From positions 13,353 to 77,352 of IMG/VR virus record IMGVR_UViG_3300005563_000033: a DNA stretch of 64,000 nt; one strand, given 5' to 3'. Both the position numbers and the translations under genes were made by a program. The stretch comes from a virus. Below the pieces are notes generated by a model that was given only the letters and a program-made list of their open reading frames with translations, searched no databases and was not told the origin of the DNA. Shown in pieces: positions 4,317 to 60,080 of this stretch (position 1 is its first letter; every line of letters begins with the position of its first letter).

Positions 4317-4906
4317 AAAGAGTTTTTCACCCTTATGATCTGTGGGAGGATTTTAAGTTTGGGATGTGGCGCAAAGTATCATTTAAAGAGGAACGACATT
4401 TTTTAGAAGCCGCCATAGTATTTACAGGAGATGCTGAATTGTATGGTAGATATATGATTAGAGCGATAAACGAATGGCCCTACGGATGTGAACATAATCT
4501 TAGTTGTGTCGGAATGAATAGACAAGCATGGATAGGACACGCGGCCACTTGTATAGCTATCCACTGCCCTGAATATATTACCCGTCTTGCATGGCATCAA
4601 TTGACTCAAAAACAGCAAGACGACGCAAACGAAAAAGCTGACATAGCAATAAAAACTTGGGAAGAAAATTATGCCAAAGACAAAGATTGGAATAGATGTA
4701 TTGACAGCCGCCCGTCATCGGATTTCATGGACGTTCGACACCTTCGAGAAAGTTTACCTTTCTTTCAGTGCCGGGAAGGACAGTACGGTGATGTTGCACT
4801 TAGTAGCGGAGGAAGCAAGAAAAAGAAAAAGGACGTTTGGTCTGTTGTTGATAGACATGGAAAGTCAATACAAACTAACGATGGATCACGCGACCGCCTG
4901 TTTTAG
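4313..4906 (+). CDS. hypothetical protein upstream of the IbrA-like gene
   Basis: TTG start; protein-like first ~120 aa (HPY.LWED...GM, WP..CEHNL, NR.AWIGHAA); last 236 nt overlap the next gene. Confidence 0.6.
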   Translation: MKRVFHPYDLWEDFKFGMWRKVSFKEERHFLEAAIVFTGDAELYGRYMIRAINEWPYGCEHNLSCVGMNRQAWIGHAATCIAIHCPEYITRLAWHQLTQKQQDDANEKADIAIKTWEENYAKDKDWNRCIDSRPSSDFMDVRHLRESLPFFQCREGQYGDVALSSGGSKKKKKDVWSVVDRHGKSIQTNDGSRDRLF

Positions 4907-19665: not shown

Positions 19666-21735
19666 ATGCTGTCAGTAGACATATATGGCTCACTTTGTTA
19701 CTATCCGGATGCTCCTCCGGATTCTTTAATTGAGGGGTGGGACCTGCCAAGGGAGGAACAATATTGGAGAAGAAAAGAACTGCCAGACTATTTCGACATT
19801 ATTAACTATGATGAAGATAAAAATGCGATACTTACCCCACAACAGAAAGCATATGCATCAATAGAGGTACAACGTTGCAAAAAAGGGTATTGGTTCTTTA
19901 ATAATGGCATTCCTACTTACATAACCGGGAAAAACTATTTCTATCTTCAGTGGTGGAAATTAGAGGACGATATACACCCAGACTATAGAGATGCAGATAG
20001 GAGGTATTTTTTATTCCTTGATAAGTGGGAAAACATTCTATGGTGTATTGGCATAGGGAGAGGTAAAAAAAGACGCGAAGGCGCAAGCTCTCAGGCTACA
20101 TCCAATTTAATTTATGAATGCATATTTTACACTAATAGTAATTGCGGTCTTGTAAGTAAAACAAATATAGACAGCAGAGACACCTTTACTGACATGGTAT
20201 CTTTCGGCTACAATCAGTTGCCTGTATTCTTAAAGCCAAGGCAGTTAAATAGGGCCGACAGTGTTACTGAACTTGTGTTTGCTGCAAGAGTAGGAAAGGG
20301 AGATGTGGCCGCAAAGGGTATGCGGTCTAAGGTAAATTATCGAGCCCCTGTAGAAAATGCATACGATAGAGGCCGCGTTTCGAGAGGGCTGTGGGATGAG
20401 GGCGGAAAATGGCCATTGGATGTGAAGTTCTCTAAATTCATTTCTAAGGTTACAAAGACAATGGTGAAAGGAGCCAAGCGCGTTGGGTTCGCTGAATGTC
20501 CATCAACTGTGAACGAAATGACAAAAGGGGGCGGCGCGGAGTATAAGGTATTTTGGGATGGAGCCAATCAATTTAAAAGTGGTGGCAAGAAAACAAAAAA
20601 TAGATTTGTTACTTACTTCACTCCGGCATATGATAATTACGAAGGGTTTATTGATAAATACGGAATGTCCGTCATTGACGAACCTACAGAGGAGCAATAT
20701 CAATACCTTGTTGAAAAATGGGTAGTTAAAGACCCTAATACCGGAGAAACGGTTTCCGAAATATCGGAAGAAGATATTAGGCTAGGCGCAAGGAAGTATA
20801 TTTATAGTAGGCGCGAAGGGTTAACGGGAGAGTTATTAGAAGAGGAGATAAGGCAAAACCCATGCACTGTACAGGAGATGTTTGAGGCTGCCAATACAGA
20901 TTGCGCCTTTAATTCCTATAATATCAATAAACGCAGAAAAGAACTTGAAGAAAAGCCTATATACAAAAGGAAGGTTCTGTTTTATAGAACGCTTGATCAA
21001 AAAGTAACCTTCCGGGATGTAGATGAAAAGAAAGACCCATTTTATTGGAGGATAACAGCCTTCCCGCCCCCGGGCCAAGAAAATATCTATAAAACAAATG
21101 CGGGAGTAAGAGAGCCAGGACGTACGCATGATGGAGTTATTGCCGTGGATAGCTATTCTAATAGTCAGGGAGGGCGTAAATATGGCTCCAAAGCGTCTGC
21201 TTGGATAGGCAGAAGATTTGATATATTAGACCCAGAAAACACAGGGAAGCCAATAGGCCATCTTTACGGACGACCAGCAGACAAGGCTATACTTCACGAC
21301 CAGTGTCTCTTAGCGGCAGAATACTTTGGTTTTAAAGTTTTTTATGAACACACGGCAGATGATTACCTGTCCCACTATCGGGATAGGGGCAAATCCGGGT
21401 ATTTAGGGACATACCCCATGAGTTTAATTGATCCGAATAAGCGGCATAATGCAGATCGTTTCAAGGGTGTACCTATAACACCATTCAGCCTTACTAAGCA
21501 ACTAGACAATGGGATTGCCTATTTCAACGACCATTGTGATTTGATAGATTTTGAGGAACTACTTGAAAATGCGCTCATTTTTGATCCTTACGATAGGACG
21601 GCCTATGACTGCGTGGTAGCATTTCTGATTCTTGTATCTTGCCTGATGGAGCCTATAAATAAGCCAAGGAAACAAACCGAACCCTTGGTAACAGTCTACG
21701 AAAATCCCCTTTATGGTAGAAATTCAATGAATTAA
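19666..21735 (+). CDS. terminase large subunit
   Basis: YITG..YFYLQW, KKRREGAS Walker A variant, WDEGGKW Walker B, AVDSY nuclease motif. Confidence 0.92.
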   Translation: MLSVDIYGSLCYYPDAPPDSLIEGWDLPREEQYWRRKELPDYFDIINYDEDKNAILTPQQKAYASIEVQRCKKGYWFFNNGIPTYITGKNYFYLQWWKLEDDIHPDYRDADRRYFLFLDKWENILWCIGIGRGKKRREGASSQATSNLIYECIFYTNSNCGLVSKTNIDSRDTFTDMVSFGYNQLPVFLKPRQLNRADSVTELVFAARVGKGDVAAKGMRSKVNYRAPVENAYDRGRVSRGLWDEGGKWPLDVKFSKFISKVTKTMVKGAKRVGFAECPSTVNEMTKGGGAEYKVFWDGANQFKSGGKKTKNRFVTYFTPAYDNYEGFIDKYGMSVIDEPTEEQYQYLVEKWVVKDPNTGETVSEISEEDIRLGARKYIYSRREGLTGELLEEEIRQNPCTVQEMFEAANTDCAFNSYNINKRRKELEEKPIYKRKVLFYRTLDQKVTFRDVDEKKDPFYWRITAFPPPGQENIYKTNAGVREPGRTHDGVIAVDSYSNSQGGRKYGSKASAWIGRRFDILDPENTGKPIGHLYGRPADKAILHDQCLLAAEYFGFKVFYEHTADDYLSHYRDRGKSGYLGTYPMSLIDPNKRHNADRFKGVPITPFSLTKQLDNGIAYFNDHCDLIDFEELLENALIFDPYDRTAYDCVVAFLILVSCLMEPINKPRKQTEPLVTVYENPLYGRNSMN

Positions 21736-21784: not shown

Positions 21785-24214
21785 TTGTATCCCGAAAATA
21801 GATCAGGGGACCCCGGCCCGCAGTCCGGTAATGTACTCAAAAACTTCCAGTTAACAACGGATAGTAAGAGTAAACTAGATTTCTCCTACGGGAAAAGTAT
21901 AGCGGAATACATAGTCTCTACAATGGCTGGAACCAATAGCTATTACTGGTTACGGAACAATCGATATAAGCTCAATAGGAACGCAGCAGCCGGGAAAATA
22001 GATATGTCAAAATTCCAAGATCGCTTGGAAATGAACGGGAAGGACAACTTTGCAAATTTAAATTGGCAAAGTATCAAGGTGGTCAATACGATCATAGCTC
22101 GTTTAGTAGCTCGTGGGATGAATAGCACTGAAAAGATTGTTGTAACCGCCGTAGATTCCCTTTCCCAAAAAGATAAGCAAGAAGAATATCAAGCCGCCGA
22201 ATTTTACATGCGTCATCAACAGATGATCCGACAATTAGAACAAGCATCCGGCCAACAAATCATTCCTACTGGCCAATACATTCCAGAAGATCAAAATGAG
22301 CTAGACCTTTGGGCGGCTGAATATTTGGAACTTCCAGAAGAAATATTGTACGAAAAAACGGTCAATGATATATTAGCGGCGAATGGCTTTTTTGATGTGA
22401 TAAAGGAAATGCAATTGCATGACAGTGATGAGGTTGGATTTGTTGGTACATACACTTGGATGGATGAGTCTGGGGTTATTCACGTAGACCGAGTGAAGCC
22501 AGAAAATGCCATCTATTCGTATTCAGAATTTAATGATTTCAGGGATACAGCTTGGCGTGGTCGAGCTTTCGATATGAAAATCAGTGAGTTTAGACGTAGA
22601 TATGGTAAAGAATTTGGTGGCAAATTGACGGAGGAAGAGATTTGGCAATACGCTATGACTTCCAAAGAATACCAGCTTGATGATAAAATACGCTGGCTCT
22701 TACAATGGAATACAATGATGTTACGACCTTATGACGAATGGAATATAGGTATGATCCATTTTGAATTAAGGAGCTTGGACAAAGACGATTACACTATCAC
22801 CGAAACCCTTCAAAATAAAAGAACCTTTGTTGATCGGGGCGTCCCTACTAATCTGAAACCCAATCAGGAATATGTAGCAGATGAATATTGGAATATCTAT
22901 GAAGGGATGTTTGCCCGCGATAAGTGCGAAATGCTGGAATGGGGATTGAAGAAAAACATGATTCGCCCCCAAGACCCGAAAGAAATAGGTAACGCTGAAT
23001 TCTCTTATAGCTTCTATATGCATCAAAATTACCAGATGCGTAATGTAGCTATCCCGGAAAAGATAGAGGAGCCGGTGGATCAAATGATATTGGCTCTTCT
23101 GAGGATTCAACAGTGTATTGCCACTATGCGGCCGCCCGGATCAGCCATAAACGTAAGGGCATTAAGAGAGGTGGATTTGGGATTAGCAGACGGCACAAAA
23201 CCTTTTGATGTAAAAAAAGTTTTTGACCAAAAAGGAGACTTGTATTATACGGACATGGATGCGGAAGGGAATATGATTCCCGGCTCTCCCGTAACGGCTG
23301 CCCCAGACGACGGCTTTATGAACAAACTACAAGCCCTGATTGCCGATTATCAATTCCATCAGGCTGTTTTGCGAGATGAACTAGGAGAAGACCCCAATCT
23401 TATTTCCCAAGCAGCCAAACCCCGCGTTACCACAGAGAACATAAATACTGCCCAAAATCAAAGCCTCTTAGCTACCGATTACTTTTATGACTCTTGGTTA
23501 AATTGCATGAAAGATACAGCCAAGAAAGTATGCTGTTTGATTCATGACTCTGTTTATTACGGAGCATCAGTCTATAGGCATCTTTTAGGGGAGCAAGATG
23601 TAGAAGGGCGTGTGTTTACTTCTGACATACAAATGTTACCTACGGAGCAAGAGCAAGCTAACTTACAGGCCATGATGAATGAGATTATCCAAAGTAACCC
23701 TGAATTTTTGGTATACTGCGACACATTTAAGGTCATGCGGATGGCTAAGGAGGATTACAAACTTGCAGAGAAGTATTTGCGTCAATGTCAGAAAAAAATG
23801 ATTCAAGGCCAAAAAGAACAAGCCGCGCAGAATACACAGTTGGCCGCACAACAACAACAGGCAAGCAACCAACAGGCCGCTGAAAATGAAATGCAGATGG
23901 AGAAAATGAAGGCGGATTTAGAATCTCGAAAGAATGAGGAGTTAAGTAGGGCCAAAAAAGAAGAGCTATTTATTAACGGAATATTCTCTGTTTGGACAAA
24001 AGGGGGAACGCTACCACCCGAATTACAGGGGGTGGCTCAGGAGCTAATCCAAAATGTAGGATTACCTTTATTTGCTCAAAATACAAAAAATAATGTAGCT
24101 TTAGCACAAGGAATGCAGGCCATGCAACAATCGGACCAGGGACAACAGGCCCCATCTGAAGATCAGCAAGAACCTGCCGAAACCGATCAATCACCACAAA
24201 CTATGCAACAATGA
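21785..24214 (+). CDS. portal protein
   Basis: 809 aa after terminase; helical with Gln-rich C-terminal barrel, as in Bacteroidota podoviruses. Confidence 0.85.
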   Translation: MYPENRSGDPGPQSGNVLKNFQLTTDSKSKLDFSYGKSIAEYIVSTMAGTNSYYWLRNNRYKLNRNAAAGKIDMSKFQDRLEMNGKDNFANLNWQSIKVVNTIIARLVARGMNSTEKIVVTAVDSLSQKDKQEEYQAAEFYMRHQQMIRQLEQASGQQIIPTGQYIPEDQNELDLWAAEYLELPEEILYEKTVNDILAANGFFDVIKEMQLHDSDEVGFVGTYTWMDESGVIHVDRVKPENAIYSYSEFNDFRDTAWRGRAFDMKISEFRRRYGKEFGGKLTEEEIWQYAMTSKEYQLDDKIRWLLQWNTMMLRPYDEWNIGMIHFELRSLDKDDYTITETLQNKRTFVDRGVPTNLKPNQEYVADEYWNIYEGMFARDKCEMLEWGLKKNMIRPQDPKEIGNAEFSYSFYMHQNYQMRNVAIPEKIEEPVDQMILALLRIQQCIATMRPPGSAINVRALREVDLGLADGTKPFDVKKVFDQKGDLYYTDMDAEGNMIPGSPVTAAPDDGFMNKLQALIADYQFHQAVLRDELGEDPNLISQAAKPRVTTENINTAQNQSLLATDYFYDSWLNCMKDTAKKVCCLIHDSVYYGASVYRHLLGEQDVEGRVFTSDIQMLPTEQEQANLQAMMNEIIQSNPEFLVYCDTFKVMRMAKEDYKLAEKYLRQCQKKMIQGQKEQAAQNTQLAAQQQQASNQQAAENEMQMEKMKADLESRKNEELSRAKKEELFINGIFSVWTKGGTLPPELQGVAQELIQNVGLPLFAQNTKNNVALAQGMQAMQQSDQGQQAPSEDQQEPAETDQSPQTMQQ

Positions 24215-47175: not shown

Positions 47176-50100
47176 TTGAACGATATGGCTCCAAAAGAAA
47201 GAAGGAGGTTAGGGAATAAATATCCCTCCCTCTTTCTGACGATAATCATACTATTATTATGCGTTAAAGTAAATTCTCAGACGTATAATCCTAGCTTACA
47301 TACGGTTACAAATAAGGCTCTGGGGATAGCGCAAGCAACACCTACGGATGCTCGTAGTATGTTCTATGATCAGACAAATTTTATTTACAGACCCTATCAA
47401 TCTATTGTTGAGGTTAAAACATATTTGAATCTAGCAAAATATCGAACTGGTAATTTCTTAATTGTAGTCGATTCCGGAGGTTTATTGCAACCGAACGGCG
47501 TGTATGTCGGGGGGCATAATAATTTTTGGATGTTTAAAGATTCTACGGCAGATGCAAATCTCATAGAATTAAATCTTCAAGGAAGTTCCGGAAGTTGTGC
47601 TGGATGTCTTTTGGCTGTTAATAATCTAAGTGATTTAGCTAATGCTACAACCGCTCGATCTAACCTTGGCTTAGGTTCCATATCTACATTGTCATCTACC
47701 GCATCAGGAGGTGACGCGTCGGGGAACTGGCCTGCCATCACCGTAAACTCAATTCAAGGGAAGAATTTAGCCTACATAACCAACTATCTCAATTTAAGTA
47801 ACACTCCGGCAATTCCAAGTCAATTAAACCCAACAGGACTAGGTTTAGTAACCATAACGGGGGTATACCCCAATCTTACGTGGACTGGAAGAACACCGGG
47901 AATCGAGGAAACTATTTTCGCGAATAATGCTACGTCTCGAACTGACTCTCTTAATATAGGAGCTTTCTTGTTTAGGATGTATGGTACATCTGCTTTTGGA
48001 CTTCCCAAGGGTACAACAGCACAAAGACCGTCCTCTGCTGCTGCCGGTGACACCAGATGGAATACGGATAGTTTAAAGAAAGAAACATTTGACGGTGCTT
48101 CATGGGTAACAGATGGAAGCGGGGGAGGGGGTGGAGGCGGTATTACAGCCCTTACAGGAGACGGTACGGCATCAGGAACAGGATCAGTACCTTTCACCTT
48201 AGCAACAGTTAATAGTAATGTCTTTGGCTCCAATACCTTTTTGAAATTTGGGGTGAATGGCAAAGGTTTGGTAACAAGTGCGACCGCCGTAGGATCAGGA
48301 GATATTACGGGAGCTTTGGGCTTCACTCCTTATAATGCTACCAATCCGGCAGGATACATTTCTAACATAACAGGACTCGTAACTCAGGGTACGGAAATAA
48401 GTATAACGGGTTCTGGAACGTCTGGGACACCTTACGTAGTCAATTCTAAGGCCAATATCCGGACGGTTAAAACAATAGCCAATTTGTATGCGCTACCTAC
48501 GGCAGGGTTAACGGACAGTGCGGTGGTTGTGGTTACGGATACAGTTGCAGGTGGACCTATGATGTGGATTTCCACTACAACTACTGTAGAAGATTCGGGA
48601 ACAATATTCAAACCAACTGCCATTAGTTCGGGAAGCCCTGGCCGGTGGATACGTCAATACAACGGGTTAAAAAGTTTGCATTTTTGGGGTGTGAACGGCG
48701 ACAATAGCACCAACGTTACAAGACGTACACAGCTTGCTATGAATAGTTGTGTGGGTGGTACTTTATATGTTCCATCGGGGATATACCTGATCGACTCTCT
48801 TATTTATCCAGCGCAATTATCCATGAGAGGGGAAAGCCGTAGGAATACACGCTTCCAGGCAACCGCCAGCGGTGCCCAATCTTTCATACGTCTTGGCCCC
48901 GGTCAGTCTAATGAAATTTATTGGACAGATATATCCATTGTAGCCAATGCCAGTAACGTAGGTCAAAAAGGATTTGACTTTACGGCGGTTCCGGGGTCAA
49001 CTACGGGTGGTTTGTGGAACTTCGAAATGGACAGAGTGGATGTAACGAATTTCAGAGGTACGGGTATTAACCTATACTGTCATGATGGAGCCTTTGATAT
49101 GGCGCATCAATTCCTAACTTTCCGTCAAGTAAGAGTCTATTGTACCACCGATACAGCCTCTCATGCCGTGGTATGGGATGGGCAAGTCAACCAGACAACT
49201 TTTGATGATTGCGAATTCGATTGCCCTAGTTGGGCAGCCGGAACGAGAGGCGTTGTTTTGATTAGTGGAGGCGCAAGCAATGACCAGATCGTAGGAGGCA
49301 ATACTTTTCATAACATATCGGTTCAAGGGTTTGATCAGGCTGTATATACTTATAATGCACAAGGGGTAAGTTTCACGCAGGATTATTTTGAGTCAGACAG
49401 CGTTGGCATCTATGCCACCAATAGTTCCCGCATTACCGTGTACGACATTCACCTGTCCAATGTAGGTAACACCAGATACGTGTTTGGGAATGACAATAGC
49501 GTAATGGACATTCTAGGATACCGGCTAACTCCCAACCCCATCACCGGAAAATTCTATACCTCTCCGGGCGGAACTTCGGGCGGCGGCGTTATTCAACGTG
49601 GTGTTGGGCAAACAACCAATACCGTAACAACTGTTTTTACCGGGCAGAACATAAACGTCTCTGCTAACACCTTAAACACGGGTTATTTTACCGACATTAT
49701 AACCAACGTAAGCAGTTCTGTATCCAGCTATGTAACGACCATTAACAGCAATCTTAGCCCAACGGAGCATCTTTTTATAAGAGCTTATGACGCATCTCAT
49801 ACCAGCAATAATGCTTTGTTATTTAAATCGGGCGGTAATATATCTCTTCCCGGTAGTTTAGATAGCGGAATGCTGGTATTGCATGACGGACAATCGGCAG
49901 AGTTTGCACGTACTGACATTGGCACTAGTGTATGGGCTTTGGTGCCTTCGTCTATTACGCCCTTATACATGAGTGCCTTTCCAACTACTGGCTTGTGGAT
50001 TACTGGCAACGTTGTTTATAACAGCAATCCAACTTTCGGAACGGCTGGGATATGGGTATGTAAGAAAGGGGGCATTGGAGCAGCAGCTTTATGGGATAGT

Positions 50101-53100
50101 CTTGTAGTGGGAGCAGGGGGCGGAAGCGGAGGGACTAATTCAAATGTGGGTTCCGGGTATCGCTTGGCAATACCGACCACCAACAATATAAAAACTATTT
50201 TTGGTAGCACTTTTATTTCGTGGGATTCTACTTCAAATACCAATGCGCTGACCTCTAAAATAGCCAATGGAACCGCTAATAATATACTGGGTTGGGATGG
50301 GTCTGGGAATCCAGCTTCGTTAGCCCCCGATACTTTGTTTGTAAAAAATAGAGTGTCAGGAACAGGGGTTCAAGTAGGGAATATATCAAACGACACGCTG
50401 TATTTGAATAATCTAAACGGCAGCACCTTCATATCGCAGGCGAAAAATTCCGACAGTTCCATAACAACCGCAATAGCCAATTCTACGGCCAATACTCTTT
50501 TAGGGTGGAATGGGTCCGGAGTACCGACGAATATAACAGCAGGATCAGGAATCACAATATCTGGTGGCGTTATAAGTTCAAGTGGTGGCTCTAGCGCCTT
50601 AACCAATACGCATATTTTCGTAGGAAACGCCTCTAACATAGCCACAGACGTAGCCTTGAGTGGAGACGCTACAATAGCCAATACAGGAGCTTTAACGATT
50701 GCCAGCAATGCTATAACTACTGGTAAAATAAACAATAACGCTGTAACATACGGTAAGTTACAGGCCGCTTCTGGGCAGTCTTTATTAGGAGCTACAGGGG
50801 CTGGTAATTTTCAAGAACTCACATTAGGCACCAATCTTTCCATATCTGGAACTACTCTTAATGCTGCGGGCAGCGGAACGGACACGATAACGCAGGCGAC
50901 AGCCCCATTACGGATTACCAGAGCGAGCAATGTAGTCACTATAGGCGGCGACAGTCTGTTGAATAAATACAATTCCAATTATGCTACCACGCAGAGAATA
51001 CAATATTATCAGCCTGCATCAGGCGTTAATGGCACGTCGGATACGGTAACTAATTATGGGTGGGCAAATATAGACTCCGCTCTTTCTTATTATACAACAG
51101 TAGGAAAAGGCGCTGACTTTGGCGGCTGGCTGGTGAATAGTACGTCAAATGATTCCGTTCAGTTATTGACACCCATTGGGGTTTATATAGGCAATTCTTT
51201 TGCGGCCGCCCATCCTTGGTTTACTGGTCCGCTAGAACAACCGGGTGGATGGAATCCTACGATTGCTGATCCTTGGGGAACAACTACGCATACTTTGGAT
51301 AGCCTAACGCATTATAAGTGGTACGGTATGGGGATCGGCGGGCAGACTACCTCTCAGATGCGTTCTCGATTTTTACGTGATGTGCTTGGGCTTCCCTCTA
51401 ATCCCAATGACGGACTAGGAAGTCGAACGATTGGTCGAAAAGCTTCTTTTGCAATTATCGAGGGTGCAATAAATGACCTTGCTGCTGGGGTATCAGATAG
51501 TATTGTTCGGGATAATTTAGTTTGGATGGCCGAAACCTGCCTACAATATCAAGTTCCTTGCGTGATGTTGAACTGCCCTGGTGACGGGTCTGGCACAACT
51601 AAATCTTATTACCAAGCCATCGCCAGACTGAATAAGTGGATGGCTTCCGGCATATTGCAATCCTTGGGTGTAACGGTAATCGATTTAAACAAGCTATGGA
51701 ACACAGCTGAGATGAACAACTACAATTTTAGCTCTTATGTAAACTCGGGAGACAAAATACATCTGACAAAGACTGGATATGATACCTTGGGAAAAATAAT
51801 ATTTTTTAATGCAAATATACCCGTCTTAACAAAGGCAGTTATTATAAAAGCGAACTCTCCAACCAATCCAATATCTGGCTACAACGTGCCCACAGGTATT
51901 ACATTTACAGGAGTAAGCTATTCTCTAACTTCTAATCCCATAGATACGATAGCCATTACATCGTATATAACGGATTCTGTTTGGATGAAAATAACCAGCT
52001 CGTCCGGCGCTGGAAGTAAAACGGGCGTTAATTCCGTATTGTGGTATATCGATAACGATCCGACGAACGCATTTATGTATACGGAAAGAACAGCCTTTTC
52101 CGGTCCGCATCTTCCTTTCTCTAACATGTCTTCCTTGAATATCCGTGCAAAAGATTATACTGTTGGGTTAAGGCTCATAGATGTAATGGGGAATGATAAT
52201 GTTTATAACCATTTACGATTAATAGGCGGACAAAGTGCCAGCACAAATATGATTATAAATGGGGGCGCTAGTCCATCCGTGCTTAACAGCTCAGCCTTGA
52301 CTGTTTATGGGCATTTATCATTAAATACCGGGAGTAATATTTTCGTTCCGGGTTTTGGATCGACGATAGGTAACTTACAAATTGGCAACACCTCCAATCC
52401 AAGTACGTTAGGGAGAGGTGTTGGATATATTAACTCCGCGATGGATTTTCAAGCTGGTCAAGGATCATCGATGGCTAGTGAGGTTATGCGGTTTTCACCG
52501 TTCAGTAATACCGTGTATACGATTACGAGCAGCTCCACCCGTTTTCCAATGCACAAGTTCAATGGAGGATTGGGTAATGGAACCGACAGAGATACAGTAT
52601 CATTAATGGGGACAAACTTCCAATGGAACAACACGGAAACGGGCAATGTTATACCGGGTTTTCGTGGGATATTGGATTTGCATTCCACTATACTTTCAAG
52701 GGGAACGTCCAATAGATTTTATAGCATCTGGGCAGAGAATGGAGACAACTGGTTGAATACGGTTACAGGCAAAACCTCTATCGGCACCATAAATCCAGCG
52801 GGTTCAGCTAAATTAGACGTTACCAGCAGAACAAGAGGATTTATACTGCCAAGGATGCGTCAAGGTCAACGTGATAGTATAGGATATATAGGAGCCGTAA
52901 ATATTACTACTGCCGGGACTGGATATACTACGGTTCCAGTCCAGACAATCACAGGCACAGGGACGGGGGCTGTAATAAATTTCATGTTGTCTGGTGGAGG
53001 TATTGCAACTCCCACAATCATCGATCCGGGAGAAGGGTATAAGCCGGGATCGAGTATAAGTATCGCTTTCTCTGGTGGGGGCGGTTCCGGGGCTGCGGCT

Positions 53101-54150
53101 ACGTTAACGATAAATGGACCGGATAGTGGGCTGATGATTTATAATACGACCGTAGATTCACTTCAATGGTATAAGCCATCTTGCGCTTGTTGGATAGACG
53201 CAGGTGACGGCGGACAAAATATATACAATGCAGACGGAACGCTTACGGGTAATAGAACTTTATCGGGTGCCAATTTTACGTTGGCTTTGGGTACATCCGG
53301 CAGCAAGCTATCTAATCTATCCATATGGTCTACCGCAGGCGTTAACTTAACAGGGGGACAATACGCTAGTACGGGCGGTTCTCAACTTTTGGAAGTGGCA
53401 TCCACTATAAATAATCCGGTCACAGCGGCCAGCGGCACAGTAAGTAATTTTTCTGCTTATTTGTTTTCAGCCCCTACGATTACGAGTACGAATTCAAGCA
53501 TTACCTATTCTAGCCCAGCCACTCTAAGAATAGACAATCAGCCGACTATGAGTACTAACTCTACTGCGACTGGCAGATTGTTGGCTTTGGATGTAGCAGC
53601 TGGGATAACACATATGGGGGTTGGGTCGTCTAATTTTTCTCTCATAGCTGATGGGTATGCTTATTTTGATGGAGCCTCACCCACCAATACTATAGGAGTG
53701 GGATTCGGGCTATCAACATCTAGTCACGCCACCTTGAACCTTCCGGCAGGTACGGACCCGTCTACAGGAGGCGTTAACACCGCTAGCGGGAATATGTGGT
53801 ATAACGGCACTAATCTATATTTTGTAGATGGCAGCACGAACGGTGTTAAAAGGGATATATTGAACGGCATTCATAATTACCTACATTCAATATCAACTCC
53901 GGCTACCGGCGGAACGGTGAACTTAGTAGCTAATCAGTATAATATTATAAATCCATCTGGGACCATCGCTACGTTGACAGTTAATTTACCGTCTAGCCCC
54001 AACAATAATGACGTAGTTTATATAAAATACACACAAGCCGTTACAACAGTTACTTACGGTAACGGCACCGTTGTGGACGGCATAACAACGCCTAGTGCCG
54101 GTGGGTTGGTAGTACTAACTTTCGACAGCGGCACATCCAGCTGGTATTAA
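47176..54150 (+). CDS. giant tail fibre/spike with pectin-lyase-like beta-helix and SGNH esterase; N-terminal signal peptide
   Basis: NNLSDLAN..TARSNLGLG fibre motif; WGV.GD...LYVPSGIY beta-helix start; GNS/GIGG.T/GAIND/D.IH SGNH blocks; SAKLDVTS.TRGFILPRM. Confidence 0.8.
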   Translation: MNDMAPKERRRLGNKYPSLFLTIIILLLCVKVNSQTYNPSLHTVTNKALGIAQATPTDARSMFYDQTNFIYRPYQSIVEVKTYLNLAKYRTGNFLIVVDSGGLLQPNGVYVGGHNNFWMFKDSTADANLIELNLQGSSGSCAGCLLAVNNLSDLANATTARSNLGLGSISTLSSTASGGDASGNWPAITVNSIQGKNLAYITNYLNLSNTPAIPSQLNPTGLGLVTITGVYPNLTWTGRTPGIEETIFANNATSRTDSLNIGAFLFRMYGTSAFGLPKGTTAQRPSSAAAGDTRWNTDSLKKETFDGASWVTDGSGGGGGGGITALTGDGTASGTGSVPFTLATVNSNVFGSNTFLKFGVNGKGLVTSATAVGSGDITGALGFTPYNATNPAGYISNITGLVTQGTEISITGSGTSGTPYVVNSKANIRTVKTIANLYALPTAGLTDSAVVVVTDTVAGGPMMWISTTTTVEDSGTIFKPTAISSGSPGRWIRQYNGLKSLHFWGVNGDNSTNVTRRTQLAMNSCVGGTLYVPSGIYLIDSLIYPAQLSMRGESRRNTRFQATASGAQSFIRLGPGQSNEIYWTDISIVANASNVGQKGFDFTAVPGSTTGGLWNFEMDRVDVTNFRGTGINLYCHDGAFDMAHQFLTFRQVRVYCTTDTASHAVVWDGQVNQTTFDDCEFDCPSWAAGTRGVVLISGGASNDQIVGGNTFHNISVQGFDQAVYTYNAQGVSFTQDYFESDSVGIYATNSSRITVYDIHLSNVGNTRYVFGNDNSVMDILGYRLTPNPITGKFYTSPGGTSGGGVIQRGVGQTTNTVTTVFTGQNINVSANTLNTGYFTDIITNVSSSVSSYVTTINSNLSPTEHLFIRAYDASHTSNNALLFKSGGNISLPGSLDSGMLVLHDGQSAEFARTDIGTSVWALVPSSITPLYMSAFPTTGLWITGNVVYNSNPTFGTAGIWVCKKGGIGAAALWDSLVVGAGGGSGGTNSNVGSGYRLAIPTTNNIKTIFGSTFISWDSTSNTNALTSKIANGTANNILGWDGSGNPASLAPDTLFVKNRVSGTGVQVGNISNDTLYLNNLNGSTFISQAKNSDSSITTAIANSTANTLLGWNGSGVPTNITAGSGITISGGVISSSGGSSALTNTHIFVGNASNIATDVALSGDATIANTGALTIASNAITTGKINNNAVTYGKLQAASGQSLLGATGAGNFQELTLGTNLSISGTTLNAAGSGTDTITQATAPLRITRASNVVTIGGDSLLNKYNSNYATTQRIQYYQPASGVNGTSDTVTNYGWANIDSALSYYTTVGKGADFGGWLVNSTSNDSVQLLTPIGVYIGNSFAAAHPWFTGPLEQPGGWNPTIADPWGTTTHTLDSLTHYKWYGMGIGGQTTSQMRSRFLRDVLGLPSNPNDGLGSRTIGRKASFAIIEGAINDLAAGVSDSIVRDNLVWMAETCLQYQVPCVMLNCPGDGSGTTKSYYQAIARLNKWMASGILQSLGVTVIDLNKLWNTAEMNNYNFSSYVNSGDKIHLTKTGYDTLGKIIFFNANIPVLTKAVIIKANSPTNPISGYNVPTGITFTGVSYSLTSNPIDTIAITSYITDSVWMKITSSSGAGSKTGVNSVLWYIDNDPTNAFMYTERTAFSGPHLPFSNMSSLNIRAKDYTVGLRLIDVMGNDNVYNHLRLIGGQSASTNMIINGGASPSVLNSSALTVYGHLSLNTGSNIFVPGFGSTIGNLQIGNTSNPSTLGRGVGYINSAMDFQAGQGSSMASEVMRFSPFSNTVYTITSSSTRFPMHKFNGGLGNGTDRDTVSLMGTNFQWNNTETGNVIPGFRGILDLHSTILSRGTSNRFYSIWAENGDNWLNTVTGKTSIGTINPAGSAKLDVTSRTRGFILPRMRQGQRDSIGYIGAVNITTAGTGYTTVPVQTITGTGTGAVINFMLSGGGIATPTIIDPGEGYKPGSSISIAFSGGGGSGAAATLTINGPDSGLMIYNTTVDSLQWYKPSCACWIDAGDGGQNIYNADGTLTGNRTLSGANFTLALGTSGSKLSNLSIWSTAGVNLTGGQYASTGGSQLLEVASTINNPVTAASGTVSNFSAYLFSAPTITSTNSSITYSSPATLRIDNQPTMSTNSTATGRLLALDVAAGITHMGVGSSNFSLIADGYAYFDGASPTNTIGVGFGLSTSSHATLNLPAGTDPSTGGVNTASGNMWYNGTNLYFVDGSTNGVKRDILNGIHNYLHSISTPATGGTVNLVANQYNIINPSGTIATLTVNLPSSPNNNDVVYIKYTQAVTTVTYGNGTVVDGITTPSAGGLVVLTFDSGTSSWY

Positions 54151-54153
54151 AAT

Positions 54154-55752
54154 ATGAAGACAATTTTAACTATACTGTTTTCTTGGGCTTTTATTGCCAA
54201 TGCTCAAACCGTCAAACAGGTCGTTCAAGCCGAATACAGAGTGTGGTATGTGTATTCTGATTCCACCGTTAAAGGCTATTCAAATAACGGCGGGGCACAT
54301 ATAAAAACATGGCAAGAGCCTTCCGGTTTTCATTGGAAAGTCGTCACACCTGCTTTCAACTACATGAATGTAATTGATAGATTCGGGTACATATGGCAAA
54401 GTAAAATTTTCTTTTTAGACAATAAGGATAGCTTCTGGCGGGTAGATACCGATACAACCGGAGCCGCCTTTAATGGTAACTGGTATATTACGTACTTCGA
54501 TTTTGCCAACATGACACTCCGGTCTGACTCAACACCGTGGTATTTTGGGCAAGATAACTATAGCTTCTTCTATGCAGGCGGAAATCTTGATCCTTGGACC
54601 GGCACCAACATGAAGCCCACACAATTTTCTACAGCCAAGCTGCGGAAGATCGTCATGGGATACAATCACATCGTAGGGTTGAGCAGCGACGGACTTACCG
54701 TATATGAATGGGTGCCCCCCAGCCGTACGCCCCATCAGACTATCTCGCTTCCAAGGCCAGGCGTAGATGTTTTTGTAGCATCCAGTGACTTCTGGGGCTA
54801 CATAATGCCGGACGCAACGGGGTCCCAGACAATGGGTTATCCGTACGTTGCCGGAACAAGCACAAGTCTATACGGTGGTTCTACTGCCTTTACTACGCCA
54901 ACATCAATAAAAGCTCTTTGGGGCCTTACGCAGCCCATAAAGAAATTTGATGTGGATTGGCAAGCGATACATTTTATAGATAGCTCTGGGCGTCTTTGGG
55001 GTTGCGGGTGGAACTCCTTTGGAGAAGTGGGTAATGGGGTGGAATTCGTGGGACGGTATACTTACCAGGGAGGTAACTTCTCTTACGGCTGGCCGCTCAA
55101 CAACGGCGAAAATCCATCAGGCATCCCGGTCAAGATAGGCGACACAACAAAGAACGATTGGCAAGATATATGGTCAACTAATTGGTTCGGGACCACGAAA
55201 GGCGCACGGGATTCGAGAGATAGCATATACACGTGGGGACGTAACAAGGCCAATGTCATGGGGAATGGCCTTCAGAACAACATTTGGTTAAAAGACACTT
55301 CCAATATGGACCAGTTCCACTACAACGCCATAGATATAATAACCCCCACGATTGTTACCCCAATTTCGCAAACGACCACTTTAGTAAACGGGCGACCCCC
55401 CACCGTAAATGCACTCAATCAAAGCATAAGTACATCCAGCACTACCATTACGACAACCGGTAATATGCTGAAAGTAATGACGGTTGCCGACACCACCAAT
55501 GTTATTTGTTGTGCTATTGCTTCCCATGCTTGGACTCAGATAAGCGGTCCCAATACAGCAACCCTTACCAATGCTAATACACAAACCGTTACAGCCTCTA
55601 ATCTTATCAATGGAACATATGTTTTTCAAGATTTCGTATCCGACAATCACAGTGGACAAGATACAGTACAGACGCATATAACAGTCTCAATTTCGGCAGC
55701 TCAACCTTGGATTCATCACAATAGAAAATTCAAAACCAAGCAACTTCCGTAA
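54154..55752 (+). CDS. exported RCC1-like propeller + PKD-type domain protein
   Basis: signal MKTILTILFSWAFIANA then Q; LWGCGWNSFGEVGNG and YTWGRN..MGNG RCC1 repeats; WTQISGP...GTYVFQ..V.DN. Confidence 0.75.
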   Translation: MKTILTILFSWAFIANAQTVKQVVQAEYRVWYVYSDSTVKGYSNNGGAHIKTWQEPSGFHWKVVTPAFNYMNVIDRFGYIWQSKIFFLDNKDSFWRVDTDTTGAAFNGNWYITYFDFANMTLRSDSTPWYFGQDNYSFFYAGGNLDPWTGTNMKPTQFSTAKLRKIVMGYNHIVGLSSDGLTVYEWVPPSRTPHQTISLPRPGVDVFVASSDFWGYIMPDATGSQTMGYPYVAGTSTSLYGGSTAFTTPTSIKALWGLTQPIKKFDVDWQAIHFIDSSGRLWGCGWNSFGEVGNGVEFVGRYTYQGGNFSYGWPLNNGENPSGIPVKIGDTTKNDWQDIWSTNWFGTTKGARDSRDSIYTWGRNKANVMGNGLQNNIWLKDTSNMDQFHYNAIDIITPTIVTPISQTTTLVNGRPPTVNALNQSISTSSTTITTTGNMLKVMTVADTTNVICCAIASHAWTQISGPNTATLTNANTQTVTASNLINGTYVFQDFVSDNHSGQDTVQTHITVSISAAQPWIHHNRKFKTKQLP

Positions 55753-55991
55753 TGGATGAGAAAGAAATACAAATACGGGGTATAGTACTCATGGAAGAGA
55801 TGAGTAAAAAAGTAAATACCATTGAAATAAAAGTGGATTCTATTTACAATGAAAAAATCCATACCCTTGACAAAAGACAGGGAATTACAGAGGATAAAGT
55901 TTCTAGGATTGAAAAAATGTTTTACGGATCAATCATGATAATAATAGCGCAGGCTATTGGATTGGTATTCTTATGGATTCAAAAAAAGTAA
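55752..55991 (+). CDS. XhlA-like holin candidate
   Basis: coiled coil plus one C-terminal TM helix and basic tail. Confidence 0.55.
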   Translation: MDEKEIQIRGIVLMEEMSKKVNTIEIKVDSIYNEKIHTLDKRQGITEDKVSRIEKMFYGSIMIIIAQAIGLVFLWIQKK

Positions 55992-55992
55992 A

Positions 55993-56400
55993 ATGGAGAT
56001 AGAAAAAGAAATACGAGAATTGAAAGTGCTGGCAATGCGCAACGCCAAGCCCATCTTTGACGAACAAATAACGCGGTGTGTAAGCGCCATCATCGTTGAT
56101 CTTTCAGATGGAACGATCCTCTATTCTACACCGCCGTCCAATGATTTATTTGGGTATGTAAATGGGGGACTAGACGGGAAAAACATAACCGATTTGATGC
56201 CGGAAAGATTCAGAGTAAAGCACAAGGGACACTTAGCGCACTTTGCTCATGCGCCCAAAATAAGACAAATGGGAGAATCTGAAATGGCCCTTTACGGTCT
56301 TCACACAGACGGATCAGAGTTTAAGATAGAAATAAGCCTATACCCTACTGAAATAATAAATACCCGATGTGCCGTAGCCACTATTTTGAAGATGAGATAA
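55993..56400 (+). CDS. stand-alone PAS domain protein (FixL-like)
   Basis: LFGY....L.GKNI.DLMPERFR..H....F...P..R.MG....LYGL..DGSEF.IEISL. Confidence 0.85.
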   Translation: MEIEKEIRELKVLAMRNAKPIFDEQITRCVSAIIVDLSDGTILYSTPPSNDLFGYVNGGLDGKNITDLMPERFRVKHKGHLAHFAHAPKIRQMGESEMALYGLHTDGSEFKIEISLYPTEIINTRCAVATILKMR

Positions 56401-56432: not shown

Positions 56433-56780
56433 ATGAGCCCATTCTGGACCGAAGTACTTGGAAAGGATAACGATCCTAATGTTTTAGGAGCCGCATTCTT
56501 CTTTGCCCTCATAGGTATTTTCATTACGCTCCTTTTAGGCACATATGCCAGGGTGCCCGTTTCGCCAAATAGCCCTACTAAATTTTCTTGGTCGTATTTA
56601 TGGTCGGATAATTTCAAAAGAATAATAGCTACTCTTTTAATGGTGGTCGTTTCTCTTAGATTCATTCATGATCTTTTTGGATTTGAATTAAGTGCTTGGC
56701 ATGGGTTTGTCATTGGAACCGGATGGGACGGGCTCGCATTTTTGATAAAACAAAAAACGCGTTTGCTTGACCCGAAATAA
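56433..56780 (+). CDS. holin-like membrane protein (about 3 TM)
   Basis: three hydrophobic segments, basic C-terminus. Confidence 0.55.
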   Translation: MSPFWTEVLGKDNDPNVLGAAFFFALIGIFITLLLGTYARVPVSPNSPTKFSWSYLWSDNFKRIIATLLMVVVSLRFIHDLFGFELSAWHGFVIGTGWDGLAFLIKQKTRLLDPK

Positions 56781-57444
56781 CCTCATAGCATATATCATAA
56801 TAGGAGCGGCTATTGCTATAGGTTTAATCATTGGATTAAGGGGATGTGAAAGAAAGCCGGGGCCAGATCATGCTGTAGATAAAGCAGTGATAGATAGTAT
56901 AACGAATAAAGCGCATAAGGATAGTGCTGTAGCGGCTAAAATAACAGCAGTTTTAACAGATTCATTAAGTAAGCTCCGGCATGCTAATGATTCCTTAGAA
57001 ATAGATCAAAAATGGCAAGAAGGAATGGTATTAGATAAGGCGACACGCTTGAAATGGTTGATACGTAAAATAGACTCTCTGAAAGCTAAAAATGATACAC
57101 TGGGTCAATTAGCCGGATGTGACTCATTGAGGGATTTATATGAAGGCGCGGCCAAAATTGTAGGCGGGTATGAATATCTTTCTGATAGTCTTATTGATCG
57201 TCTGAAGTCAGAAAGAAAACTCTCCGATAGCGTAAAGAATTATCTTTACTCCATGTTTAGCCAATCCAATAACGATCTATTTGAGATTTCCAGAAAATAT
57301 AACAATCTTTACGAAGATTATAAAAAAGTGAATGTTAGACCAAAACGATGGAGTTTAGGGCCTTCGGCAGGGGCATTTATTACTAATAATGGAGTTGGGT
57401 ACGGTATTGGCATTACACTTTCTTATTCCATATTAAAGTTCTGA
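56767..57444 (+). CDS. spanin-like protein
   Basis: N-terminal hydrophobic/LRGC, long coiled coil, C-terminal amphipathic beta hairpin ending in Phe. Confidence 0.55.
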   Translation: MTRNNLIAYIIIGAAIAIGLIIGLRGCERKPGPDHAVDKAVIDSITNKAHKDSAVAAKITAVLTDSLSKLRHANDSLEIDQKWQEGMVLDKATRLKWLIRKIDSLKAKNDTLGQLAGCDSLRDLYEGAAKIVGGYEYLSDSLIDRLKSERKLSDSVKNYLYSMFSQSNNDLFEISRKYNNLYEDYKKVNVRPKRWSLGPSAGAFITNNGVGYGIGITLSYSILKF

Positions 57445-57493: not shown

Positions 57494-57784
57494 ATGGGAA
57501 AAACACTATGGGAGAAGCTCATCCACTTCATCAAAATTTGTTATCAAGAAAAATTTTCAACTCTATTTAAGAGTTGTCTTTTGGGACTTATTGCAAGTAT
57601 GCAGTTACTGTGGAGCGGCTCGCTTGCTGCATCTTTGGTGATATATGTTTTAAAGGGGATGGGAACCCTCCTATTAACAGCCGGAACTACTTTGACAGGA
57701 TGTTATATCTCGTATCGCTTTGATAAATGGAAAGAAAAACAATCTTCGGATAAACCAAAGAAAAAGAATCGTAAAGCAGCTTAA
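57494..57784 (+). CDS. membrane protein (holin-like)
   Basis: two TM segments, Lys-rich tail. Confidence 0.5.
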   Translation: MGKTLWEKLIHFIKICYQEKFSTLFKSCLLGLIASMQLLWSGSLAASLVIYVLKGMGTLLLTAGTTLTGCYISYRFDKWKEKQSSDKPKKKNRKAA

Positions 57785-57794
57785 ATTATATTTT

Positions 57795-57914
57795 ATGTCT
57801 AAAGCCACAAAGCCCGTAAAGCCAACAAAACCAATTAAACCCGGTCAGCCGGGGCCAAAACCAGCAGATGGAAGTCTTCCGCCCGGAACAAATCCACCAC
57901 CACCTAAGACGTAA
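57795..57914 (+). CDS. Pro/Lys-rich peptide (39 aa)
   Basis: MSKATKPVKPTKPIKPGQPGPKPADGSLPPGTNPPPPKT; AT-rich start. Confidence 0.45.
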   Translation: MSKATKPVKPTKPIKPGQPGPKPADGSLPPGTNPPPPKT

Positions 57915-58347
57915 CGACGATAATAGGAGGCGGATTATTTGGATAGTAGTAATGATATTGTTGGGATTCGAAATACCCGAAATCCCGACGTATATTTACT
58001 ATTTCGATAACAGTATAATAGTGCGGCAAAAAGATTGGTTTTTATGGCCATGGCATCATCAAAAAATAGCTGAATTTTGGTACTTTAAAGAAACGGCTAA
58101 TCATATTTCTAGGCTATTATTTCTGATAGCAGCCACTAAAACGGCTGTTCAATATAGTACTGTTGTGTTTTTGGCTTTCTTTATGGCAATGATGTACCCC
58201 GTTGTTGATCTTATCATGTTCTGGCTTAACTATAACCAATGGCCTGTAGTATATGAGTTTGTTGTATTGATATTTTACTTGGCAGGCCGTGGATTGATAA
58301 GACCTTATATGCCGGATTCATTCGCTCGTATTCGTTCGATTTTTTAA
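57868..58347 (+). CDS. multi-pass membrane protein
   Basis: about 4 TM segments, aromatic-rich. Confidence 0.55.
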   Translation: MEVFRPEQIHHHLRRNDDNRRRIIWIVVMILLGFEIPEIPTYIYYFDNSIIVRQKDWFLWPWHHQKIAEFWYFKETANHISRLLFLIAATKTAVQYSTVVFLAFFMAMMYPVVDLIMFWLNYNQWPVVYEFVVLIFYLAGRGLIRPYMPDSFARIRSIF

Positions 58348-58362
58348 CCCAAAATACACAAT

Positions 58363-58461
58363 ATGATACATCTTAATTTTTGGCTATTCCTGATTCTTAT
58401 GGCTGGCTCTTTTGTCGGCGGCTATCTTGTACGAAACAATGGCAACAAAGTAAAACTTTAA
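58363..58461 (+). CDS. single-TM micropeptide (32 aa, not in ORF track)
   Basis: MIHLNFWLFLILMAGSFVGGYLVRNNGNKVKL fills the gap. Confidence 0.45.
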   Translation: MIHLNFWLFLILMAGSFVGGYLVRNNGNKVKL

Positions 58462-58464
58462 ACT

Positions 58465-58743
58465 ATGCCAGAATACATTTCTTTCGGTGAAGCATGGAGG
58501 TATGTATCCTCCTTTCCTTCATATTGGATTTGGATAGGAGCCTTCATAGTAGCTTTGATTGCCGGGCTTATTATCATTGAAAAGCTGGCCATTAAAATGA
58601 ATAGAGAGTTAAATACCGTGAAATTAGTATGGGTAATTGTATTTTCTTTTTTAATCATGGGGGCCATCTTTAAGAATCCGACAAACATTGCACAGAATAC
58701 CACAAAGGAACAAGCCGCCCGTGGCGTATATATCGGCTGGTAA
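58465..58743 (+). CDS. two-TM membrane protein
   Basis: hydrophobicity pattern. Confidence 0.55.
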   Translation: MPEYISFGEAWRYVSSFPSYWIWIGAFIVALIAGLIIIEKLAIKMNRELNTVKLVWVIVFSFLIMGAIFKNPTNIAQNTTKEQAARGVYIGW

Positions 58744-58747
58744 AACC

Positions 58748-59152
58748 ATGAAACCACTATTTATAATAACAGTATGGGTGATATTTGCCGTGGGGAATAT
58801 TGGCATAGCTGAATGGAATGACTCAGTAAGGCGGAAAAGAATTGCCAATAAGATCACTAAGCAAATAGAACACGGCTGGTATTTTACTGGCTATACCCTT
58901 CTTTGTCTTGGCGTGTTTTATATATCCAGAAATTATTGGGAATTATCCAGTCTGTTGTTATTGAGAACATCGGTATTTGCAGTTGCGTACAATAAGTTCA
59001 GTGATTTACCGGCCTTCCATCTTTCCATTTCAACAACCTCATGGTGGGATAGGTTATTACGTACCATAGGACTAAAATCAATTGAGGAAGTTGCTATTAT
59101 TTCATTTTGTATCAGCATCACGTTTGTGATGTTCCAACTTTTCCACATATGA
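58748..59152 (+). CDS. multi-pass membrane protein
   Basis: ATG 58748; I.H.W, N...LP..HLS..T.S.WD pattern. Confidence 0.55.
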   Translation: MKPLFIITVWVIFAVGNIGIAEWNDSVRRKRIANKITKQIEHGWYFTGYTLLCLGVFYISRNYWELSSLLLLRTSVFAVAYNKFSDLPAFHLSISTTSWWDRLLRTIGLKSIEEVAIISFCISITFVMFQLFHI

Positions 59153-59679
59153 CACTACCGGATCAATACAAATGGCTTGCTGATGTAACAGGGCCAAAAA
59201 TGCTAGTAACGGCTTTAAAGTACTACGGACTAAAAGAAGGCGCTGGCAGCGCGGATAACCCAACCATAATGCAATGGGCGCATGATTTTGGGATAACTTG
59301 GTACACCCATGACTCAATTGCTTGGTGTTCGCTCTTTTTAGGAGAGGTCGCTAAAGAGTCAGGATACACACCCCCAGATAAAAATAATTTATTGGCTGCT
59401 GTTAGCTGGTCTAATTGGGGCAATTGGACAAACGGCCATTGGTTGGGGGCTATTATGGTATTCAATCGACCAGGAGGTCATCATGTAGGGCTATATATCG
59501 GGGAAGATAATGACGCATTCCATATCCTTGGAGGGAATACAGGTGATGCCGTAGCGGTGGCGCGATTGGCAAAAGATCGGCTTATCTCTGTCCGGTGGCC
59601 TACAAACGAACCATTACCAGCAAATAAGAATATAATAGTCTTAGCAAGTTCTGGAGCCTTGTCTCAAAACGAGGCATAA
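59149..59679 (+). CDS. endolysin, TIGR02594/NlpC-P60-like
   Basis: G.KE..G..DNP.I..WA, D.IAWCSLF, G.IMVF.R.GGHHVG.Y.GED....LGGN. Confidence 0.85.
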   Translation: MTLPDQYKWLADVTGPKMLVTALKYYGLKEGAGSADNPTIMQWAHDFGITWYTHDSIAWCSLFLGEVAKESGYTPPDKNNLLAAVSWSNWGNWTNGHWLGAIMVFNRPGGHHVGLYIGEDNDAFHILGGNTGDAVAVARLAKDRLISVRWPTNEPLPANKNIIVLASSGALSQNEA

Positions 59680-59710: not shown

Positions 59711-59744
59711 GCCCTTGGCGTAGCGGTACGTCAGGGGCATTTTT
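59711..59744 (+). terminator. terminator after endolysin
   Basis: GCCCTTGGCGTA..TACGTCAGGGGC stem plus T tract. Confidence 0.7.
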
Positions 59745-60080
59745 ATAATGCAAAATGCCCGAACAATCATATTTCAGATCATTCGGGCGTTGTTACTGCT
59801 CGGGCGAATGGCCGGTTAAAGGACGGTGCTGTTAGCGGAAACCTGGTGTATAATATTATCGTATAAAAAGTGGGATTTTGGCCTCCCGGGGGCACCACGA
59901 GAATCGTGCATGTGATTCGAGTTTAATTGTTAATAATGCATTATTGCAATTGAAATGCTAAAGTATGCAAGATGCGTCAAAAAAACAATAGCAGAAACTA
60001 AATTCCGGGTAAATAGGTATATTCAAAACAATTTATAAGAAATATTTTGCCGTTTGTTGGAAAAGGTTTTATTTAGTGGT

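Follow-up and report, generated by a model that had tools for sequence, protein, structure and literature searches.

Heme-binding PAS domains serve as input modules in cellular kinases and cyclic di-GMP enzymes and, as has been known since 2026, in one transcription factor. In DosP (EcDOS) of Escherichia coli the ferrous heme is six-coordinate, held by His77 and Met95. The main determinants of phage lysis timing are generally taken to be the accumulation of holin and membrane potential, and to our knowledge few regulators of this timing have been described, the antiholins of T4 being an example; one of these, the small cytoplasmic protein RIII, delays lysis by acting on the part of the holin that lies in the cytoplasm. 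Here we describe a gene for a stand-alone PAS protein at positions 55993-56400 of a 64,000-nucleotide stretch of viral DNA (positions 13,353 to 77,352 of IMG/VR record IMGVR_UViG_3300005563_000033; this whole stretch is called the window below), together with the gene immediately upstream of it, which encodes a 79-residue membrane protein that we call p79. We propose that the two are best explained as a two-piece heme sensor that tunes lysis, and give this explanation as a whole a probability of roughly 0.4.

The nearest relative of the PAS protein with a solved structure is FG214, a one-component regulator of Fimbriimonas ginsengisoli (PDB 10jx/10jy). FG214 carries a heme b PAS domain with His/His or His/Met ligation, in which His175 is the ferric distal ligand and Met172 ligates the iron in dithionite-soaked crystals; with the H156I substitution heme binding is almost lost, with H159I it is disturbed, and signalling runs through PAS/PAS and helix/helix dimerisation (bioRxiv 10.64898/2026.03.15.711900). 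A PAS receptor encoded by a phage, VqmA-Phage of vibriophage VP882, has also been reported to link a small-molecule signal with lysis (PMC8284805). VqmA-Phage and T4 RIII are functional analogies only: neither is related in sequence to the phage PAS protein, RIII has no sensor cofactor, and VqmA-Phage, which carries a DNA-binding domain, acts on transcription and has DPO, not heme, as its ligand. Both kinds of protein, heme-PAS sensors and PAS receptors of phages, are already known. What is new is the setting, a conserved phage family whose stand-alone sensor is tied genetically to a small membrane protein of the lysis region. Full-text literature searches found neither a heme-PAS protein in a phage nor a PAS protein of any kind in a lysis cassette, and no family of stand-alone heme-PAS proteins that is restricted to phages and bound in this way to a small membrane protein of lysis regions.

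The PAS protein and its predicted heme pocket

The gene pair and the parts of the PAS protein referred to below are as follows.

55752..55991, + strand: p79, candidate partner protein of 79 residues (open reading frame, transmembrane prediction, upstream homologues in eight loci)
55993..56400, + strand: stand-alone protein of predicted heme-PAS type, 135 residues, with no transmembrane segment or signal peptide (open reading frame, profiles, AlphaFold2 model)
55993..56073, + strand: N-terminal helices of the PAS protein, residues 1-27 (secondary structure, conservation)
56203..56250, + strand: F-alpha helix of the PAS protein, residues 71-86 (model, alignments)
56251..56289, + strand: FG loop of the PAS protein, residues 87-99 (model, alignments)

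The PAS reading frame runs from the ATG at 55993 to the TAA at 56398-56400 and encodes 135 residues. A TTG start at 55957 (147 residues) was dropped since the added residues have no counterpart in the homologues. The first-pass annotation of this DNA had described a short helix and a single PAS domain without kinase or output domain, beginning 1 nt after the upstream frame at 55752..55991, and all of this is borne out. Reading frame, profiles and AlphaFold2 model agree on an N-terminal helix followed by one PAS domain, the motifs LMPERFRVKH, RQMG and DGSEFKIEISL are present in the translation, and the p79 stop codon (TAA, 55989-55991) leaves a 1-nt gap before the ATG. The stop at 56398-56400 leaves no room for a kinase or output domain, and all 35 close relatives (54-95% identity) are likewise stand-alone proteins of 132-150 residues, every family member coming from a viral or metagenomic contig. 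Comparisons with the window gene gave nonsynonymous divergence (dN) of 0.13-0.40 with synonymous sites saturated. The reading frame is real, and its family is conserved far beyond chance. A nearly invariant, family-specific motif in the N-terminal part, RNAKPxFDEQITRCV (residues 16-30, reaching nt 56082), hints at an interaction surface peculiar to this family.

By profile, the single sequence scores below threshold with Pfam PAS_9 (21.8 bits against a cut-off of 27) and passes NCBIfam TIGR00229 (29.1 bits against 22.9); many of its homologues carry PF13426 or PF00989. The only NCBIfam matches beyond the general PAS model are FixL and DosP. When a family profile of the relatives was searched against 177,635 distinct PDB sequences, the matches at E<1e-3 were heme-PAS domains only: FG214 (10jx) at 7.3e-16, RmFixL at 2.1e-11, BjFixL at about 4e-6 and EcDOS/DosP at 1.5e-5 to 2e-4, the next match being Period at E 0.05. 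A search with the single sequence returned the same heme-PAS list.

The AlphaFold2 model is confident (predicted local distance difference test score, pLDDT, 93; predicted template modelling score, pTM, 0.81) and contains a five-stranded PAS sheet (strands at residues 32-36, 41-45, 100-103, 109-121 and 124-133) with the F-alpha helix at 71-86; the FG loop is its lowest-confidence block. Foldseek gave 432 matches at E<=1e-3, those listed being PAS domains, and the matches listed down to rank 33 were all FG214, FixL or DosP, with FG214 best at 4e-9. The VIA structure search, which is independent of Foldseek and covered 48,161 chains, placed FG214 first (Z 15.2), followed by FixL (14.5) and BjFixL (14.4; root mean square deviation 1.9 Å over 101 residues to 1dp6); 98 matches had Z>=8, and those listed were PAS domains. 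Since generic PAS domains follow closely at Z 13-14, the fold says PAS in general, and it is the sequence profile together with the conserved ligand residues that makes the assignment specific to heme. We consider it very probable that the protein belongs to the heme-PAS lineage of FixL, DosP and FG214. The earlier label "FixL-type" is thus right as to lineage and as to a fold for which FixL is among the top structural matches, but the nearest solved relative is FG214 and the O2-binding Arg220 of FixL is not kept.

FG214 is the best match in both sequence and structure. The two proteins share the motif P-E-R-F-R-x-x-H-x-x-H ... P-x-x-R-x-M-G-E, and both keep the helix that precedes the PAS domain. 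The phage protein lacks the LuxR/GerE helix-turn-helix (HTH) domain of FG214, and its alignment with P0036, a 208-residue HTH(GerE)+PAS protein, starts only at P0036 residue 79, so that the phage protein corresponds to linker helix plus PAS domain. It thereby resembles the truncated FG214 construct that was crystallised as a ligand-dependent dimer. Unlike FG214, it is phage-encoded, is paired with a membrane protein and has no distal His175.

Residue correspondences were counted by hand through HMMER alignments, with the FG214 numbering checked. His77 (codon 56221-56223, in F-alpha) corresponds to FG214 His156, BjFixL His200 and the "EH" histidine of RmFixL; the first-pass annotation had pointed to a His at the axial ligand position, and this His is indeed aligned with the proximal His of FixL and FG214 and invariant in 35 of 35 sequences. 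His80 (56230-56232) corresponds to FG214 His159 and Met93 (56269-56271, in the FG loop) to FG214 Met172, and the spacing of the three (+3, +16) is identical to that of His156, His159 and Met172. Invariant in the same 35 sequences are also His80, Pro88, Arg91, Met93, Gly94 and Met98. His77 is retained in all of the closest cellular PAS domains, and Arg91, Met93 and Gly94 in most of them. Against BjFixL, His83 falls on Arg206, Arg91 on His214 (a basic residue in both), Gln92/Met93 on Ile215/Ile216 and Glu97 on Arg220, the residue of the O2/propionate switch, whose column is variable in the phage family; Ile114 and Leu116 occupy the columns of Leu236 and Ile238. FixL also has HisKA and HATPase domains that the phage protein lacks.

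From these correspondences the protein is likely to bind heme. His77 is the predicted proximal ligand, and Met93, possibly Met98, is probably a displaceable distal ligand. Since Gln92/Met93 replace Ile215/Ile216, the protein is unlikely to sense O2 through a five-coordinate heme as FixL does, and since a counterpart of Arg220 is lacking, a six-coordinate His/Met heme is likelier than O2 binding in the style of FixL. The chemistry is more likely to be one of redox change or ligand displacement than of Arg-stabilised O2 binding. The six-coordinate His/Met iron of ferrous DosP is like the switch proposed here, with the Met 18 residues after the His rather than 16 as in the phage protein. DosP matches the phage protein by sequence and structure; it is fused to a GGDEF/EAL output, and its Arg97 has no counterpart in the phage protein. 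In a subclade at 60% identity (L001, L002, L003, L012, e.g. L012:7977-8399, P0033 and P0034) "RPMGH" replaces "RQMGE". The His of this subclade lies in column 95, one residue before the FG214 His175 column, and these members may use His/His rather than His/Met ligation.

The family appears to be confined to phages and metagenomic contigs in the collections searched. A tblastn search of 50,697 GenBank phage records with the PAS protein gave no match, PHROGs holds no family for it and PADLOC no match. In 401 sampled Bacteroidota genomes no stand-alone member was found, the best match (92 bits) lying inside a 673-residue frame, and a GTDB-wide pattern scan returned only a distant 884-residue multi-domain protein in a Bacteroidota metagenome-assembled genome. 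The PAS profile run against 1.84 billion representatives gave at least five stand-alone clusters among the best 150 matches, which multi-PAS proteins dominate through summed scores. The closest cellular PAS domains have 31-43% identity to the phage protein, those at 35-43% sit in kinases and GGDEF/EAL proteins, and the closest fused forms found reach 41-43% identity.

The p79-PAS gene pair

p79 consists of a charged N-terminal coiled coil of about 55 residues and one transmembrane helix (residues 56-74 of 79), followed by "QKK". On the most economical reading it is tail-anchored with the coiled coil facing the cytoplasm, which would place that coiled coil in the same compartment as the PAS protein, itself without a signal sequence.

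Synteny was compared across 13 related loci (designated by L numbers; contigs holding P0035 (137 kb), P0015, P0018 and P0026 lie outside this sample). A p79 homologue is found directly 5' of the PAS gene in eight of the eight loci with upstream DNA (L001, L002, L003, L007, L008, L009, L012 and L013). These homologues are 32-52% identical to p79 by BLASTP and 39-52% in alignment A4, and in the related loci the two genes overlap by about 22 nt, the window having the 1-nt gap. Even the most distant PAS protein, that of L014 (39% identity), is preceded by a 61-residue protein with the same architecture as p79, here with an 8-nt overlap. When viral contigs were scanned with the p79 family, the same three contigs came back as with the PAS family, and no others. 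For p79, dN is 0.37-0.49 in comparisons with the window, with synonymous sites saturated, and both genes are under strong constraint. A word-based search for p79 relatives found two proteins only, and tblastn of p79 against the same GenBank phage records gave no match. The conserved unit is the p79-PAS gene pair, and the pairing is obligate.

Whether p79 is also the physical partner of the PAS protein we regard as evenly balanced. A complex prediction with the PAS protein, heme and p79 residues 1-57 scored 0.01, which speaks neither way.

In size, in its coiled coil with a single C-terminal transmembrane helix and in its position in the lysis block, p79 is like XhlA (PF10779) of the Bacillus subtilis prophage PBSX, for which we know of no PAS partner. 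XhlA is reported to be essential for PBSX lysis (PMC6834076). The type of host differs, that of the window virus being a diderm, probably of the Bacteroidota. Features from the ESM Atlas, to be taken as a lead only, give p79 a similarity of 0.94 to a viral cluster named "putative hemolysin XhlA" and of 0.93 to a PF10779 cluster. The first-pass annotation had called the upstream gene an XhlA-like holin candidate; the likeness stands as far as architecture and language-model features go, and membership of the XhlA family is rejected since the PF10779 hidden Markov model (HMM) finds nothing. p79 also has a weak match (E 1.4e-5, 23 bits) to a PADLOC model of "CorA-like" membrane effectors, which is probably due to its composition of coiled coil and transmembrane segment.

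The surrounding late region and lysis genes

The virus record is linear, 77,352 bp long and about 67% complete, and probably comes from a rhizosphere metagenome; a search of sequencing runs listed only these probable source samples as full holders, and no RNA run. Between about 3.4 and 60.6 kb of the window nearly every gene is on the + strand. Among these genes are a primase/helicase and, for the virion, the terminase large subunit (19666..21735), the portal (21785..24214) and further virion proteins; two very large tail-fibre-like proteins (47176..54150 and 54154..55752) directly precede p79. After the fibres come p79, the PAS gene and then the following.

56433..56780, + strand: p115, a small viral membrane protein of 115 residues (transmembrane prediction; holin candidate by position only)
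56767..57444, + strand: p225, a DUF6808 protein (Pfam 2.2e-6; homologues 3' of the pair in L006, L007, L008 and L012)
57494..59152, + strand: four small membrane proteins of 96, 159, 92 and 154 residues (holin/antiholin candidates without a family)
59107..59679, + strand: cell-wall hydrolase (endolysin) of the TIGR02594 family (NCBIfam 6.4e-28; phrog_1259, phrog_9589)
59711..59738, + strand: strong hairpin resembling an intrinsic terminator (stem of 12 bp with 7 GC pairs, and a T run)

The window hydrolase scores 97.7 bits with TIGR02594 against a cut-off of 70.55, and "cell wall hydrolase" homologues of it occur in Rhodobacter and Flavobacterium phages. Right after it, at 59711-59788, stand two convergent strong hairpins with 12-bp stems on opposite strands; they close the late/lysis block. 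p115 has two clear transmembrane segments and perhaps a third, and resembles Phage_holin_3_3 weakly in structure (template modelling score 0.46). The earlier description of this downstream gene as a 3-TM holin-like one therefore stands in so far as it is a membrane protein with two or three such segments, but the gene downstream of the PAS gene is not conserved among the related loci.

p225 begins with a transmembrane or signal segment that ends in a conserved R-x-G-C, continues as a long coiled coil and ends in a hydrophobic tail. Its homologues (L006:887-1549, L007:1738-2403, L008:9664-10308 and L012:12262-13014), some of which end in ...LKF, form a highly divergent alignment. Its layout may be that of a unimolecular spanin; in a phage of the Bacteroidota type such a protein would be out of the ordinary. 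In a scan for phage relatives that lack the pair, the 96-residue protein p96 returned no relatives. A Bacteroidota host is hinted at because the hydrolase has Flavobacterium-phage relatives and p225 carries DUF6808.

Lysis genes also accompany the pair elsewhere. In L002 an M15/VanY endolysin (L002:5241-5747; Pfam 1.4e-11, PHROG endolysin families to 2e-22) lies directly 5' of p79, and in L009 a GH19 endolysin (L009:2475-3056; phrog_181, 3e-48) lies 1.6 kb downstream, after several transmembrane proteins. In L006, L007 and L008 the pair is followed by transmembrane proteins and a p225 homologue. The synteny survey thus ties the PAS genes to lysis genes in several phages. The pair travels with three unrelated endolysin types, which is the best argument for a lysis-related role.

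Further observations concern these loci and the window. The hydrolases found with the pair (TIGR02594, M15/VanY and GH19) make these lysis cassettes mosaic. The L002 phage looks temperate, since a tyrosine-integrase-family gene lies just downstream of its pair on the opposite strand (L002:7418-8866, - strand). The 532-residue protein that follows the giant fibre in the window (54154-55752) has RCC1-like repeats and a K319L-like PKD domain (Pfam 8e-12), and a 549-residue homologue of it sits before p79 in L008. In the early region of the window (4671-5882) a 403-residue protein matches phage "phosphoadenosine phosphosulfate reductase" families (phrog_2302, 3.9e-83). ARAGORN found no tRNA or tmRNA gene in window positions 1-64000.

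Proposed role and its alternatives

We propose that the PAS protein, a PAS core with its preceding helix and no output domain, would be a phage-borne, stand-alone heme b sensor, in which the iron is held by His77 and, at rest, by a methionine of the flexible FG loop, Met93 or else Met98. It would respond to a change in redox state or to a displacing ligand such as O2, NO or CO. Made together, p79 and the PAS protein would act as a two-piece, membrane-tethered sensor within the block of lysis genes. The state of the heme would alter the N-terminal helix or the dimer state of the PAS protein, as in FG214, and this change would in turn modify the part that p79 plays in the holin or endolysin system. 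Lysis would thereby be timed by the respiratory or redox state of the host. That the PAS protein controls lysis is, taken by itself, doubtful. A more specific form, a heme-gated lysis clock in which the PAS protein binds the p79 coiled coil and is released or recruited as its heme ligation changes (redox, O2, NO, CO), holin triggering being set in this way, is somewhat unlikely as it stands.

Several findings weigh against the two-piece sensor. The case for heme binding by the PAS protein is drawn from homology only; the Pfam PAS models are below threshold for the window sequence; FixL Arg220 has no counterpart, column 97 (Glu97) varying between E, Q, A and S; and FG214 His175 has none either, column 96 (Ser96) varying between S and A. 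On the side of lysis, the XhlA HMM PF10779 gave no hit at E<=10 on the whole record, and p79 belongs to no PHROG, Pfam (E<=0.1) or NCBIfam family, its PHROG matches being weak (E 0.045-0.065). The neighbouring transmembrane proteins, p79 and p115 included, belong to no recognised holin family in Pfam, PHROG or NCBIfam. In L014 the pair comes after HNH-type genes and unknown ones rather than after tail or lysis genes. Finally, the interval between tail fibres and lysis genes is a common site for "morons", and synteny alone is no proof of a role in lysis.

The alternative that survives best is that the pair is a heme or redox sensor apart from lysis, a moron-like module at the end of the late operon that might act, for example, on host respiration, superinfection exclusion or the choice between lysis and lysogeny. 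The L014 pair, not being beside recognisable lysis or tail genes, would fit such a module, as would the L002 pair, which is the last before the opposite-strand integrase, a typical position for morons and cargo. The weak match of p79 to the defence-associated "CorA-like" membrane model (1.4e-5) points the same way, but the PAS protein itself has no PADLOC hit. The pair is also tightly packed on the same strand as the late genes, with no strong terminator before the end of the endolysin gene, and in different phages it stands beside three unrelated endolysin types. We consider this alternative unlikely.

A second possibility is that the PAS protein is a heme-free scaffold, a dimerising cytoplasmic cofactor of p79 in the lysis machinery that senses nothing, the His and Met residues being inherited or serving the fold. 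Many PAS domains are interaction modules only, and both the sub-threshold Pfam scores and the lack of counterparts to FixL Arg220 and FG214 His175 speak for such a scaffold. However, His77, His80, Arg91, Met93 and Met98 are invariant while the surrounding helix and loop positions vary, the FG214 counterparts of the conserved residues matter for heme, and the relatives of solved structure that the sequence searches brought up are all heme proteins. The heme-free scaffold is therefore improbable.

The last, that the phage protein copies an FG214-type regulator without its HTH, or the PAS domain of a sensor kinase, and by forming mixed dimers blocks heme-PAS signalling of the host, is very improbable: residues 2-131 do align with the linker helix and PAS domain of P0036, and FG214 does signal through PAS/PAS and helix/helix dimerisation, but the 31-43% identity to any cellular PAS found shows no sign of recent capture from a host, no close relative was found in the 401 sampled Bacteroidota genomes (the best being the 92-bit match in the 673-residue frame), the strict pairing with a membrane protein is left unexplained, and the idea in the first-pass annotation that the protein titrates host PAS kinases finds no support at that distance.

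The two-piece sensor tuning lysis remains our preferred explanation, and it suggests a phage that ties lysis to the oxygen or redox state of its host. The 135-residue protein, a minimal heme-PAS domain and predicted heme binder, is amenable to expression and spectroscopy. If the explanation is true, this would be the first cofactor-based environmental sensor inside a lysis cassette, and the lysis decision would receive a direct chemical input from the oxygen or redox status of the host. Such an input is plausible in rhizosphere soil, where oxygen fluctuates, and the p79-PAS pair would then be a possible redox- or gas-controlled lysis switch.

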